DNA of 64,000 bases, taken from the IMG/VR virus record IMGVR_UViG_3300028888_000047, positions 128,001-192,000 of that record; one strand, given 5' to 3'. Origin of the DNA: a virus (taxonomy: Duplodnaviria > Caudoviricetes). Numbering within the stretch: the first letter of the stretch is position 1; each line of letters starts with the position of its first letter. Of the stretch, positions 1,767 to 56,245 are shown one piece after another. The notes under the pieces were generated by a model that saw only the letters and a list, made by a program, of their open reading frames with translations, was not told where the DNA came from and did not search any database. Both the position numbers and the translations under genes were made by a program.

Positions 1767-2761
1767 TTCAAATCAACCATTTCAATTGGGGTGAAAAATT
1801 TTGCCAATTCTGTTCTATCATAATAGAACGCCAAATCATTGTCATTTACTTCAATGCCATTGATAAGCTTGTATGTCTGAGGGAAATAAACCTCATTTGC
1901 GCATTTATATTCGTTTTTGCCTGTATTGTGACGTTTAACAAACACATTCATTATTTTATCAGATGCTTGTGTTTTGAAATGATAGCATACAAGTTCGAAG
2001 AACTCCATTTTAACATCAATTCCTGTTAAACCTTTGATACTATCTTCTGAAACGTATTTGCTACAAGCACTTATAGCGTCTTTGTAATTTAATCCTGATT
2101 TTAGCTTATATATAACCTCATCATTATTTAGAGAAAATAAATCAAACCATTTAATTATAGGGGTCTGCCTTATTGTTTCTTCAACAATACCCATTAATAT
2201 TTTTTCATATTTCGTGGTTCTATTTGGATTCAGTTTACCAAATATAATTTCTCTTGTTTTTTTGGAATTTATGGCAATTTCTATGTCAGTAAACTTACGC
2301 ATAAAATCCTCATAAGTATCACAATCAAAAACAATTGCTGGATTAATCCATTTAAGAGTTTGAAAATTAGCTTTTTTCATATCAAATGATAAGAAATAGT
2401 TACTTCCCTCTTTTACTTGCTCCTGCGTATAAAGATTAATATCGCCTATAACTGGAACATATTCTTTAATTTCTTTCGTTATCTTTTCATCAGATAAAAA
2501 ATCCTTATATGCCTTAGAATTAGAAACGGTCGCTATAATATTGTTTCTGAGAGTATGATAAGCTTCCAAGAATTCTTCAACGCTTTTATAATTTTCTTGT
2601 ACGTATTTAACATATTTTAAATACGAATCCATATAGCCGAATTCATTTAGAATGATTAATCTTTCAGTGAAATATGGCTCCGTTAGTACTTGTACAGGTA
2701 CTCTGTAGTCTTCACAAAATCTGTGTCTTAACAGCTTTAAACTATGTTCATTCATTTCCAT
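1763..2761 (-). CDS. Conserved phage hypothetical protein, possible polymerase-palm-like fold
   Basis: 332-aa ORF overlapping the cca start; SFDMKKANF and NNDEV acidic motifs. Confidence 0.55.
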   Translation of the reverse strand: MEMNEHSLKLLRHRFCEDYRVPVQVLTEPYFTERLIILNEFGYMDSYLKYVKYVQENYKSVEEFLEAYHTLRNNIIATVSNSKAYKDFLSDEKITKEIKEYVPVIGDINLYTQEQVKEGSNYFLSFDMKKANFQTLKWINPAIVFDCDTYEDFMRKFTDIEIAINSKKTREIIFGKLNPNRTTKYEKILMGIVEETIRQTPIIKWFDLFSLNNDEVIYKLKSGLNYKDAISACSKYVSEDSIKGLTGIDVKMEFFELVCYHFKTQASDKIMNVFVKRHNTGKNEYKCANEVYFPQTYKLINGIEVNDNDLAFYYDRTELAKFFTPIEMVDLK

Positions 2762-2780
2762 ACCTTTTTATACTTTTTCA

Positions 2781-2837
2781 GCAAAGATACAAAAAAAACG
2801 CGGAATAAACAAATATTCCACGTTAAATAATGTTAAA
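2781..2837 (-). promoter_or_regulatory. Fused intrinsic terminator / Bacteroidetes sigmaA promoter cassette
   Basis: Minus strand TTTAACATTATTTAAC-GTGGAATA-TTTGTT-TATTCCGCG-T8-G-TATCTTTG; TTTG(-33) to TAnnTTTG(-7) spacer is 20 nt. Confidence 0.75.
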
Positions 2838-3605
2838 TCATCCTTCAGTAATACAATATTCGTATATTGTCACTAAATCATCGTCTTTCAACGGCGCAAT
2901 AAACCTTTCTACGAACTCACTTATCCATTTGTTTTCATCTGATTCATCATCAACATCAACCCATCCCTTGTCGCTTAAAAAAGCGTAGTTCCAATAAGCA
3001 CAATTATGAGAAACAAATTCATCTACATTTTTAAAATTAGATAAATAATTTTTCTTTGTTTTCCAATTGGCTTTTAAGTTTTCTTCTTCCGGCGTTGATG
3101 GAGAATCATCATCAACAACTAAAGCCCATATCTTTTCGAATAATTTAACATATGATTCATTCATATGCATACTATCCCAGTCAACATCTTTGGCTAATGC
3201 TTGATACACTTCTTTACCATTTTTTAATTTCAAAGGATAAGAAAAGTTTTTTCCTAAATTGTATTTATCCCATTTACCATTAGGATTTTCTTCGCTCAAT
3301 GCGTTCCCATCTTCGTCATAATACAATCCTTCAGTAACAGTCCTATAATATTCAAAAGAACTCATTGCATTGATTGCTTTTAACCTTTCCTTGAAATAGT
3401 CAATTTGGAATTTATTTAAAGTGAATTTTTCTGGCTTGCTTGTGATTTCAGTTAGCATCTTGGATGAGTTTTCTTTCATTTTTTCTGCATCCAAGTATTT
3501 GTATTTTATATATGGCTTAACCTTGAGAGCTTTGTCGTATTTCTCCATTAATTTTTCAGGATTATTTCCGACAACCATAACTGATAAAAATTTACTTTTT
3601 GCCAT
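2838..3605 (-). CDS. Hypothetical protein
   Basis: 255-aa ORF in the gene-dense minus-strand array. Confidence 0.7.
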   Translation of the reverse strand: MAKSKFLSVMVVGNNPEKLMEKYDKALKVKPYIKYKYLDAEKMKENSSKMLTEITSKPEKFTLNKFQIDYFKERLKAINAMSSFEYYRTVTEGLYYDEDGNALSEENPNGKWDKYNLGKNFSYPLKLKNGKEVYQALAKDVDWDSMHMNESYVKLFEKIWALVVDDDSPSTPEEENLKANWKTKKNYLSNFKNVDEFVSHNCAYWNYAFLSDKGWVDVDDESDENKWISEFVERFIAPLKDDDLVTIYEYCITEG

Positions 3606-26831: not shown

Positions 26832-26846
26832 AAAATTGTCTTTTTG

Positions 26847-26923
26847 TGACCCTAGTAGGATTCGAACCCACGATGAAAAATCGGTTTAGAAGCGACCGCA
26901 TTCGACCACTCTGCCATAGGGCC
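26847..26923 (-). tRNA. Amber suppressor tRNA (anticodon CUA)
   Basis: GGCCCTA/TAGGGTC-A73; anticodon arm GTCGC-TTCTAAA-CCGAT (CTA at 26889-26887); T-arm GTGGG-TTCGAAT-CCTAC. Confidence 0.75.
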
Positions 26924-33275: not shown

Positions 33276-33497
33276 AAAAAAAGCTGCTGAAAACTTTTTT
33301 AGGAGTTCATCAACAGCTTGGCGTTTATAGTGAAGTAAGTGCATTTATTATATTCATATACTTACAAATTCCCAATGCTGTTTTTGAACGTTATTATTAA
33401 AATCTACGGCTGATACAGACATAATATCACTGTTGCATTTACTTGTAGCAAACGCAGCATTAATAATGGATGTGATATGTTTAAAATTCTGTGCCAT
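33276..33497 (-). promoter_or_regulatory. Leader-peptide attenuator A (47-aa uORF 33497-33354, antiterminator, terminator)
   Basis: Terminator AAGCTGTTGATGAACT...AGTTTTCAGCAGCTT-T5; the uORF 3' end GTTCA..AACAGC.TTGG pairs with the terminator 5' arm. Confidence 0.72.
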
Positions 33498-41091: not shown

Positions 41092-41494
41092 ATCTTTTTT
41101 GCTTTAATGAATAATTCTTTTCATATTACAAATATACAAAAAAAAGTTAAAAAAAAGAAATAATAAAAACAAAAAAATTGCACCATTTCTGATGCAATTA
41201 ACGCCCTAACAACGCTCCTATGGAATTACCCAATGGTCTGTCACCTTCTTCTTTGCATAAAGCAGTCGAAGCATTTACAAGGTTCAAGGGCTTTGGTTTG
41301 GCGTTAACCTACTGTAGCCCCTTTTTCGGTTTTATCATTTAATTTGAGTGTGTTGCTACACCAAAGAAACATATTGATTACCCTCTGCATGCTAGAGGTA
41401 GGCTATTAACTCCTACGTGGCTTCCGTTTATGAAGAATTGTTTCACTCTTTGAAAGATGGACACTTCCAATCCTACTTCCTCAAATTAATGTTG

Positions 41495-41567
41495 AGCGGA
41501 TGACCAGGTACCATCTGGCAACCTTTGCCTTGGCAAGGCAACGCTCTAGCAATTGAGCTACACCCGC
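41495..41567 (-). tRNA. tRNA-Gly(GCC), rewired elbow
   Basis: TTGCC-TTGCCAA-GGCAA; D-loop AATTGCTA; T-loop ATGGTAC. Confidence 0.85.
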
Positions 41568-41616
41568 GTGGAGCCGGCACTGTGATGCAACAGCGGTTCA
41601 CCCGGCATGTTATTAG

Positions 41617-41689
41617 AGCAGATGACCGGGTACCATCCGGCAACCTATGCCTTGGAAGGGCATCGCTCTAGCAATTGAGCTACATCTGC
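41617..41689 (-). tRNA. tRNA-Gly(TCC), rewired elbow
   Basis: ATGCC-CTTCCAA-GGCAT; same D- and T-loops as the GCC copy. Confidence 0.85.
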
Positions 41690-43505: not shown

Positions 43506-43620
43506 AAGGAGTCATTTTAAACCCGATAGTGTTAGATTCGAACCAACGACCTCTTGGTAAAATCCAAGGCTCTAACCAACTGAGCTAACTCCCGCAGTAA
43601 ATTTTGCTGTTAGACTCCTT
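43506..43620 (-). ncRNA. ACAGCAA-stem RNA #10 enclosing a whole tRNA-like cloverleaf with a 6-nt anticodon loop
   Basis: AAGGAGTC-TAACAGCAA...GACTCCTT; D-arm, CTTGG-ATTTTA-CCAAG, T-arm GTTGG-TTCGAAT-CTAAC. Confidence 0.82.
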
Positions 43621-43784
43621 GTATATATAACCTGACTGCGTGAAGGGATTATAGGATTAGTTCTACCCTCAGATAGGGGAGGCTTCTTATGTGGGTTTTC
43701 AAATCAATCAGATGTCCCACAGCCGTTCTATACATTTACTATCAAACCACTTGCTATTACTTACACGCCTCAGCGGTTAAATTG

Positions 43785-43857
43785 TCGGGGTGACAGGACT
43801 CGAACCTGCGACCACATCATCCCAAATGACGCATTCTACCGACTGAACTACACCCCG
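43785..43857 (-). tRNA. tRNA-Pro(TGG)
   Basis: CGGGGTG acceptor, loop TTTGGGA. Confidence 0.93.
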
Positions 43858-44068: not shown

Positions 44069-44154
44069 TGGTTGGCGTTGGTGGACTCGAACCACCCGTG
44101 GAATTAACCAGAAGATTTACAGTCTTCCCCGATGCCATCTCCGGTCACACGCCA
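44069..44154 (-). tRNA. tRNA-Tyr(GTA), U1-A72, encoded CCA
   Basis: GAAGA-CTGTAAA-TCTTC, V-arm. Confidence 0.87.
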
Positions 44155-44158
44155 ATGT

Positions 44159-44460: not shown

Positions 44461-44506
44461 AAGGGAACATTTTTTAAACGTTGTTCTACCAACTGAACTA
44501 CCCCTA
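44461..44506 (-). pseudogene. 3' remnant of a permuted ACAGCAA-stem RNA (#12)
   Basis: D-arm TAGTTCAGTTGGTAGAAC-AACG...GTTCCCTT with no 5' stem. Confidence 0.55.
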
Positions 44507-45229: not shown

Positions 45230-45246
45230 AATAAAAATTAATTTTG

Positions 45247-45318
45247 TAGTCGGTACGAGATTCGAACTCGTATGGCAAGAATGAAAATCTTGAATCCTAG
45301 CCCTTAGATGAACCGACC
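45247..45318 (-). tRNA. tRNA-Glu(TTC)
   Basis: CAAGA-TTTTCAT-TCTTG. Confidence 0.9.
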
Positions 45319-45384: not shown

Positions 45385-45467
45385 GTTCATATATAAGCCT
45401 ATGAAAAACACTATACAAATATACAAAAAATATTTGATAAACAAAAATTATTATTGTTAAAAAATGT

Positions 45468-45655
45468 AAAAAGGTGAATAATCGCGTAGATTATCCACCT
45501 TCATTGTTCTAATATCATGAAAACACACTTAGTATGAGATACATATCAGGATAATCTACTTAAAATGAACAGTATGGTTCTTCTCCGAAAGCATATTCGC
45601 CCTCGTAGCCGCCGTAAACCGGTTCATAAGTATAATTAAATGATATGTTTTGCAT
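45468..45655 (-). promoter_or_regulatory. Leader-peptide attenuator B (31-aa uORF 45655-45560, antiterminator, terminator)
   Basis: GTAGATTATCC right after the stop is the perfect complement of GGATAATCTAC in the terminator AAGGTGGATAATC-TACGC-GATTATTCACCTT-TTT. Confidence 0.75.
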
Positions 45656-45696
45656 TTTTTCTATTTTTATAATAAATATAACAATTTTTTTAAAAG

Positions 45697-54958: not shown

Positions 54959-56245
54959 TTAACAACAAGTGATTAACGTATAATCTTTCTTACCCTTTTG
55001 CAACAGCAAATACTTACCATTGATAAGATTTGCATCAGTTACAAGTTCCTTCTCATTAACCTGCTTTGTCTTGTTAATGGAGAAACCATTGCTCTTGATT
55101 AGTTTTCTTGCCTCAGACTTTGAAGGAACTTTATCGTGCATTGCTGCAAGGTCAATAACAGTAACACCACTTGTGAACTGCTCCTTATTAACCTCGACGG
55201 TTGGAACACCATTCATTGCTGCCAAGAATGTCTTTTCATCCAACTTTTCAATGTCAGCCATTGTTCCCTTCCCAAAAAGAATTTCAGAAGTTTCAACAGC
55301 CTTGTTGTATTCTTCCTCAGAGTGAACAAGACAAGTCATATATTTCGCAAGAGTAGACTGCAATAAACGCTTCTCAGGTACTTCCCTGTGTTGCTCAATT
55401 AGTTTGTTAATTTCATCAATATCAATCAACGTGAACAGTTTTATGAAACGTTCAGAATCAGCGTCGCTTTGATTAAGCCAAAACTGATAGAACTCATAAG
55501 GGGTGGTTTTTTTAGCATCCAACCAAATATTACCCTTTTCCGACTTGCCAAATTTAGAGCCATCAGCTTTAGTTACAAGTGGCCAAGTAAGAACGCATGC
55601 ATCGTCCTTTTTCAGCATCTTATGAATAAGTTCAATACCTGTTGTTCCATTTCCGTACTGGTCACTTCCTCCAATTTGAAGTTTACAATTGTATTTTCTG
55701 TAAAGTTCAACAAAATCATTGCCTTGAATGAGCTGATATGTAAATTCTGTAAAAGACATTCCGCTGCCCTCGCGTTCCAAACGCTTTTTCACAGAATCCT
55801 TTGCCATCATATAATTCACAGTAATACATTTACCAACCTCACGGGCGAAATCAATGAAAGACATATTTTTCATCCAATCATAATTGTTGACCATAATTGC
55901 AGCGTTTGGCGCTGTAGAATTAAAATCTAACAACTTGGAAACTTGCGAACGAATTCCTTCGACATTATGAGCAACCGTTTCTGGGCTTAAAAGTTTACGC
56001 TCTTCAGATTTGAATGAAGGGTCGCCAATAAAGGCTGTGGCTCCGCCAAGCAAAACAATAGGCTTATGACCATGTTTTTGTAAAAGTTTTGCTGTTGTAA
56101 AGGCCAACAAGTGTCCTAAATGAAGGCTATCCGCCGTTGGGTCTGTTCCAACGTAGAAAGTTGTTGGTTTACTAAGCAACTCAACGAGGTTGCCTGATTT
56201 GCTTGCGATAAGCCCTCTAAATTCAAGTTCTTCTAATAGTGTCAT
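54959..56245 (-). CDS. tyrS: Tyrosyl-tRNA synthetase
   Basis: DPTADSLHLGH, GGSDQ.GN, KFGKS, C-terminal S4 domain. Confidence 0.96.
   Translation of the reverse strand: MTLLEELEFRGLIASKSGNLVELLSKPTTFYVGTDPTADSLHLGHLLAFTTAKLLQKHGHKPIVLLGGATAFIGDPSFKSEERKLLSPETVAHNVEGIRSQVSKLLDFNSTAPNAAIMVNNYDWMKNMSFIDFAREVGKCITVNYMMAKDSVKKRLEREGSGMSFTEFTYQLIQGNDFVELYRKYNCKLQIGGSDQYGNGTTGIELIHKMLKKDDACVLTWPLVTKADGSKFGKSEKGNIWLDAKKTTPYEFYQFWLNQSDADSERFIKLFTLIDIDEINKLIEQHREVPEKRLLQSTLAKYMTCLVHSEEEYNKAVETSEILFGKGTMADIEKLDEKTFLAAMNGVPTVEVNKEQFTSGVTVIDLAAMHDKVPSKSEARKLIKSNGFSINKTKQVNEKELVTDANLINGKYLLLQKGKKDYTLITCC

Follow-up and report, generated by a model that had tools for sequence, protein, structure and literature searches.

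A short minus-strand reading frame in the genome of a gut- and Bacteroidales-type jumbo phage, here referred to as leader B, and the terminator that follows it probably constitute (at roughly three chances in four) a ribosome-coupled attenuator of the trp/his/thr design, which would sense tRNA supply and act on a block of tRNA genes. This reading of the sequence had been put forward in a first-pass annotation by analogy to trp/his attenuation; it is now supported by coding selection on the frame, a covarying antiterminator, the placement of the stop codon and three leaders matched to their tRNA blocks. The window, i.e. the whole stretch of 64,000 nucleotides analysed here, comprises bases 128001-192000 of a 317-kb virus record (G000; 95% complete, 32% G+C). 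The phage genome carries 36 tRNA genes and a tmRNA (ARAGORN), three matches to sigma-70 region 2 (two of them above the cut-off), a TyrRS gene at 54959-56245 and a tail tube gene. Its relatives are metagenome contigs of 277-410 kb; a cultured or annotated relative was not found in the GenBank phage set. A recoded genome (TAG read as Gln, as in Lak phages) was rejected and table 11 retained, since the coding cover is nearly equal (0.81 with table 11 vs 0.83) and TAG is the stop in 19 of 231 long ORFs; the stop codon of leader B is TAA regardless. Despite the standard code, a tRNA with a CUA (amber) anticodon is present at window positions 26846-26923, and the relative G001 has one too.

Leader B and its putative RNA switch

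The features of leader B and of the tRNA block behind it (block B) are, along the minus strand:

45671..45680, minus strand: phage promoter box ATATTTAT, 16 nt before the leader B ATG
45560..45655, minus strand: leader ORF B, 31 codons, rich in Tyr, Glu, Gly and Pro, TAA stop
45622..45648, minus strand: segment 1 (codons 3-11), 5' strand of helix 1:2, fold z -4.4
45586..45605, minus strand: inner hairpin (codons 17-24) capping the 1:2 arm, with compensating stems in relatives
45541..45570, minus strand: segment 2, antiterminator core 45559-45549, pairs with segment 1 or 3
45460..45502, minus strand: intrinsic terminator 3:4 and U tract; stem 45502-45470, 14 pairs; segment 3 is 45496-45486
45416..45445, minus strand: sigma-A type promoter, TTTG ... 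TAnnTTTG, past the terminator and bypassing the switch
45246..45318, minus strand: tRNA-Glu(UUC)
44070..44155, minus strand: tRNA-Tyr(GUA), Rfam match 44073-44154 with GUA anticodon loop, identical in L048
44002..44009, minus strand: second TAnnTTTG box in block B, ahead of the Pro and Gly tRNAs
43784..43857, minus strand: tRNA-Pro(UGG)
43523..43594, minus strand: pseudo-tRNA with a 6-nt anticodon loop, kept in relatives and unmatched by leader B
41616..41689, minus strand: tRNA-Gly(UCC)
41494..41567, minus strand: tRNA-Gly(GCC)
41176..41199, minus strand: block-closing terminator after the Gly tRNAs, the next minus-strand terminator call after 45470

Leader B is present in the sequence as the first-pass annotation had written it, and the count of 17 Tyr, Glu, Gly or Pro residues among residues 8-28 is correct (6 Y, 5 E, 4 G, 2 P). 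In the leader as a whole, 17 of 30 residues belong to these types vs 6.4 expected (binomial P=2.7e-5), a level that is reached by 76 of the 64,156 30-residue windows of the phage proteome. Both Gly codons are used, as had been noted, GGC three times and GGA once; 13 of the 30 codons are unread by the block B tRNAs, and the leader is depleted in residues of block A, another tRNA block of the genome (P=0.009). When residue sets are ranked on this genome alone, E/F/G/Y lies slightly above E/G/P/Y, which takes rank 2 of 4845. The leader B protein is also called on 3 Logan contigs. The exact core pattern of the leader is absent from 185,579 prokaryote genomes, a search that distant host copies could escape, and a viral scan with the same pattern returned no further records beyond the known relatives. 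Rejected along the way were a second self-match at G000:79528-79613, which is AT-rich promoter-type sequence without a leader, and L046, a chance pattern match that is not a homolog.

The 11 nt past the stop (45559-45549), for which complementarity to the 5' arm and loop of the terminator had been claimed, are the exact complement of 45496-45486. Of the 130 terminator-like hairpins in the genome, no other has so long a complement (the runner-up has 8 nt), and at least this length arose in 5 of 20,000 shuffles. Mutually exclusive helices 1:2, 2:3 and 3:4 together with an intrinsic terminator are present in all 14 loci examined. Helix 2:3 has 11 of 11 Watson-Crick pairs in this window and is kept in the 14 loci, with two-sided compensatory changes in L010 (2 pairs) and L068 (3 pairs) that include the loop-end bases of the terminator; the spacer between the segments is unalignable across loci. 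The terminator 3:4 has a stability of -13.5 to -19.2 kcal/mol and a U tract in 14 of 14 loci, a 1:2 duplex of -11 to -21 kcal/mol is formed in every one of them, and the fold z of the leader is -4.4 here and -4.6 in G001. Helix 1:2, which was absent from the earlier annotation, is the predicted anti-antiterminator and completes a putative trp-type 1:2/2:3/3:4 switch. In 11 of the 14 loci, the inner hairpin has a stem of 8 bp whose sequence differs between loci through compensating changes; in the other three, this window among them, it is 7 bp long or irregular. It is possibly a pause or nucleation hairpin. Rfam leaders and riboswitches (trp, his, leu, thr, T-box) gave no match over 45455-45680, even at E up to 5, and the UGGNACC antiterminator bulge of T-boxes is absent from segment 2.

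The stop codon has shifted in evolution: it precedes segment 2 by 0-6 nt in six loci, and in eight it is found 18-27 nt past the start of that segment. With both placements, a footprint model predicts that the antiterminator is masked by a ribosome at the stop, in agreement with the original proposal (P(2:3) 0.0-0.4 in 13 of 13 homologs), and a ribosome on codons upstream of the masking zone yields a P(2:3) of ~0.9 in 12 of 13. When helices are allowed to straddle the ribosome, stalls at codons ~18-27 are predicted to antiterminate poorly in several homologs. Without a ribosome, helix 2:3 is suppressed (P<0.2) in 7 of 13, and for 4-5 of the 13 homologs, L068, L070, L075 and L069 being named, the model shows no clear off state. 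When the full-length RNA of this window is modelled at equilibrium, a stalled ribosome does not keep the terminator from prevailing (P 0.97), so that the switch must be kinetic, i.e. co-transcriptional.

The element would operate as follows: Transcription from the ATATTTAT promoter, plus any read-through from upstream, would enter leader B. In the absence of a ribosome, segment 1 would pair with segment 2, segment 3 would stay free and the terminator would form; the terminator would likewise form when a ribosome quickly reaches the end of the leader and covers segment 2. A ribosome may instead linger on the Tyr, Gly, Pro and Glu codons when the charged tRNAs are scarce, cleaved or unmodified. 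It would then block segment 1, and segment 2 could capture segment 3 as the latter exits the RNA polymerase. The resulting antitermination would extend the transcript across the tRNA genes for Glu, Tyr, Pro and Gly, as far as the terminator at 41176. Presumably, the leader is translated, stalling is the signal and read-through is the response.

The tRNA block, its promoters and the other leaders

The bounds of block B (45470 to 41199-41176) fix the Glu/Tyr/Pro/Gly set without reference to the leader, and an equivalent of the block-closing hairpin is found in L010, L056, L062, L063 and L068. That exactly these tRNAs follow the leader, as claimed at the outset, holds for the standard tRNA types of this genome (Glu, Tyr, Pro and two Gly only; tRNA-Tyr(GUA) was missed by ARAGORN and seen by Rfam), but not for the block as a whole, which additionally holds the pseudo-tRNA, a YrlA-like permuted RNA (~43987-43864), other small RNAs and five ORFs, one of them with an OmpA domain. 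Near-identical relatives with the same leader carry a tRNA-Met in block B, which in L048 lies between Glu and Tyr. A ~170-nt deletion near 44505, between short GGGG-containing repeats (~44510-44470 vs L048:7361-7575), removed this tRNA-Met(CAU) here and took most of a permuted tRNA-like RNA, of which the D-arm half remains; the exactness of the match is therefore partly an accident of this isolate. L068, L070 and L061 had seemed to have lost Tyr or Pro tRNAs, which proved to be an artefact of tRNA calling.

Block B has some further peculiarities. Small RNAs of one family, each closed by a stem that contains ACAGCAA, occupy 45383-45325, 43987-43864 and 43620-43506, with equivalents in all relatives; one has a Cys-type anticodon loop, one is YrlA-like and one is the pseudo-tRNA, and they would be co-induced with the block B tRNAs. 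In relatives, tRNA-Glu(UUC) has a long variable arm (L048:6339-6430, L009:169-255, L052:10513-10599); here, an ordinary Glu(UUC) takes its place between nearly identical flanks. The anticodon loop of tRNA-Tyr is interrupted by an insertion of ~460-520 nt in two relatives (L068:6772-7234, L010 ~2740-3266), which looks like a self-splicing intron and has no Rfam intron match at E up to 0.05.

The ATATTTAT box, which the first-pass annotation had missed, does not vary among 12 aligned homologs and is separated from the ATG by 13-21 nt (distance measured in 11). Boxes of this type peak 10-30 nt upstream of genes (20 sense vs 5 antisense), and ATATTTAT is found in front of the tail tube and tail lysin genes as well; it is therefore probably the phage late promoter, and its transcript would be late. 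Past the terminator, the promoter expected near ~45415 was recovered as a TAnnTTTG box at 45423-45416; it is seen in all relatives that reach that far, and an equivalent of the 44009 promoter is present in most. TAnnTTTG is the sigma-A promoter consensus of Bacteroidetes (PMC7366714), which indicates a Bacteroidetes host. Because transcripts from these two host-type promoters start past the terminator and evade it, the switch would gate only the probably late transcript; ungated expression from both probably takes place early in infection. The switch might then serve as a late top-up, with negative feedback, over an ungated supply. As a separate observation, 14 genes of G000 share an N-terminal IxLTESDL-like motif on unrelated proteins; 8 of the 14 follow a ATATTTAT-type box vs 26 of 340 other genes.

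The genome also contains other leaders, which act as internal controls:

33283..33497, minus strand: leader A (47 codons) and terminator, before Asn/Ser/Lys/Phe/Val/Ile/Ala/Met/Asp/His tRNAs
G000:230489-229770, outside the window (L066): Gln leader, 12 codons, with five tandem Gln codons (P=3e-6)

Among 192 ATATTTAT+ATG sites of the genome, three give a short ORF and a terminator, and two of these three head tRNA blocks; the third short ORF (G000:199863, minus strand, 16 codons) overlaps its terminator and lies away from tRNAs. The Gln leader is followed, in this order, by a hairpin, a terminator, tRNA-Gln(UUG) and tRNA-Gln(CUG). It is conserved in G001 (L082:1508-1837), no promoter match is found between its terminator and tRNA-Gln, and it is the cleanest putative attenuator of the genome. 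In leader A, 38 of 46 codons match block A (P=1.7e-4) and one is an E/Y/P/G codon (P=2e-4); leader A avoids E/Y/P/G/L/R, is conserved in L056, L078 and G001 and has a different promoter box, which is TAATTAT-like. In this one genome, the three leaders A, B and Gln are each matched to the tRNA block behind them. Beside Leu tRNAs of relatives, late-type boxes are likewise followed by short ORFs (L076/L079:16182, L082:1368-1484).

Conservation in relatives and rival explanations

Relatives were gathered via neighbouring genes and a profile of the leader, which gave 13 distinct homologs; the profile search had 13 matches, 11 of which are short leader-like proteins of 29-53 aa, and the adjoining 84-aa gene has 67-73% DNA identity in the seven relatives compared. 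All 13 relatives share the order ATATTTAT box, ATG, ORF of 27-39 codons, segment 2 and terminator, followed, where the contig extends, by a TAnnTTTG promoter and tRNA-Glu. The ORF is open and in frame in the 13 homologs, the start is kept and the stop suitably placed in all, and the ATG and the conserved core are 42, 45 or 48 nt apart, a whole number of codons in every case; the C-terminus is variable (27 to 39 codons or more). For the core flanked by the two Glu-Pro motifs, the in-frame pN/pS is 0.35, vs 1.20 and 1.04 for the other frames. Seven columns are invariant in 11 sequences (E,P,Y,E,G,E,P). All four codons are in use in the Pro and Gly columns, one Tyr is always TAC and the Glu of both Glu-Pro motifs is always GAA; in G001, the first Pro codon is lost and a new Pro codon is found two codons upstream.

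Whether the frame is coding and whether its composition is related to the downstream tRNAs were points on which the first-pass annotation had staked its reading. The ORF is under coding selection in the relatives, and the four residues most enriched upstream of the masking zone in the pooled relatives are the block B types (Y 3.2x, G 2.8x, P 2.6x, E 1.8x), followed by Ile at 1.5 and all others below 1 (Phe 0.8x, Lys 0.1x, Asp 0); being pooled from related sequences, these enrichments are a description and not an independent test. The expectation that the leader tracks the tRNA content of each relative has one case in its favour: L010 is the only locus with tRNA-Leu(CAA) in block B and the only one with a TTG codon in the leader (codon 27), an event that fits such tracking and is suggestive only. 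It did not hold for the tRNA-Met, Glu(CUC) and Gly(CCC) of relatives, for which no mirroring leader codons were found. The tRNA set of the block barely changes among relatives, so that tracking across homologs can be tested on this one anecdotal event. Part of the codon conservation in leader B is explained by RNA structure: the nucleotides concerned also form the inner hairpin and helix 1:2, and conservation of Y-E-G may thus be partly RNA-driven.

The same switch might respond to general translation speed or to nascent-peptide arrest (by a drug, EF-P, Mg or host shut-off) and not to four tRNAs; the leaders of whiB7, tlrB and mgtL are the comparison cases for such a signal. Residue order and spacing, with two Glu-Pro motifs round Y-E-G, are conserved beyond what a codon checklist demands, and in the model any stall upstream of ~codon 28 frees segment 2. 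The conserved residues are, however, exactly the four types of block B, and three unrelated leaders match their own blocks and avoid the others, which makes a general arrest signal unlikely. The long 1:2 arm, the inner hairpin with its covariation and a GAACC motif present twice could alternatively belong to a riboswitch-like or protein-bound RNA that controls the terminator, the ligand being, for example, the TyrRS that the phage encodes, and the ORF would then be incidental. This is very unlikely given that the synonymous bias occurs in one frame only, that all length changes keep the frame and that every homolog retains the start codon and has a stop in a suitable position; an Rfam family match is also lacking, even at E up to 5.

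Leader B might, finally, simply encode a small late protein and end in a terminator of its own; the tRNAs would then be transcribed only from their own promoters, and both complement and composition would be coincidental. A sigma-A type promoter past the terminator in every relative would fit this explanation, as would the related short proteins that are called as genes in many assemblies. It is nevertheless hardly credible: the length of the C-terminus ranges from 27 to 39 codons or more, the leader B protein has no Pfam match, the complement covaries and exceeds that of any other of the 130 terminators, and the same layout recurs with a poly-Gln leader and no promoter between terminator and tRNA.

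Relation to known systems and biological meaning

Leader-peptide attenuators are well known from amino-acid operons (trpL, hisL, leuL, pheL), and those of thrL and ilvGMEDA are multivalent. The phage element resembles the trp, thr and ilv attenuators in its control-codon leader, which would be translated, its helices 1:2, 2:3 and 3:4 and its intrinsic terminator; as in the multivalent leaders, several amino acids would be sensed and a ribosome that has finished would mask segment 2. Unlike amino-acid operon leaders, it would control tRNA genes from a phage promoter, its codons are interspersed and not in tandem, the sensed species would be the product, and there is no sequence relation (no Rfam match). 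The pheM leader mediates attenuation of the E. coli pheST (PheRS) operon by the level of charged tRNA. The phage element would likewise act on translation supply, but pheM concerns a synthetase and one amino acid, whereas four tRNA families would be served here. In T-box riboswitches, tRNA status chooses between terminator and antiterminator; in contrast, the codons of the phage element sit in an ORF, and neither an Rfam T-box match nor a UGGNACC bulge is present. Taken together, the element appears to carry every attenuator feature that is accessible to sequence analysis, with the dependence on ribosome position as a prediction of the model only.

For amino-acid operons of a Bacteroidetes member, leader-peptide attenuators have been predicted (PMC9723704). 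In Anabaena PCC 7120, a cryptic trn operon with the repressor TrcR provides a tRNA array that is induced under translational stress (PMC8421152, PMC10272220). There, a protein repressor acts at initiation without codon specificity, and attenuation is described in neither paper (PMC8421152, PMC10272220). In phage T5, tRNA-Tyr counters the retron-Eco7 PtuAB (PMC11555353), and evasion of anticodon nucleases by phage tRNAs has been proposed as a hypothesis (PMC10264068). Counter-defence of the T5 type is similar to what is suggested here in that phage tRNAs, including tRNA-Tyr, replace depleted host tRNAs; T5, however, uses a strong promoter, and a leader or attenuator is not mentioned (PMC11555353, PMC10264068). 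A literature search, which covered few subscription journals, found no published description of attenuation of tRNA genes.

On a wider scale, the balance tips slightly towards a late, block-wise restocking of those tRNA families that the host has destroyed or exhausted, in a counter-defence circuit that would correct itself, with leaders being re-tuned as tRNA genes move between blocks (Leu-CAA/TTG in L010); the blocks are E/Y/P/G, N/S/K/F/V/I/A/M/D/H and Q, each behind a codon-matched leader. What the phage family contributes is the covariation, the coding test and a single genome with three leaders that complement one another. The Bacteroidetes phylum is mostly without Shine-Dalgarno signals, and the proposed attenuator implies transcription-translation coupling on a phage late promoter in this phylum. 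The element would also provide a ready reporter for tRNA-cleaving defences in Bacteroidales. It addresses the long-standing question of why phages carry tRNAs and when these are used: if the attenuator reading is true, phages measure tRNA supply, and their sequence names the tRNAs that are under pressure during infection.
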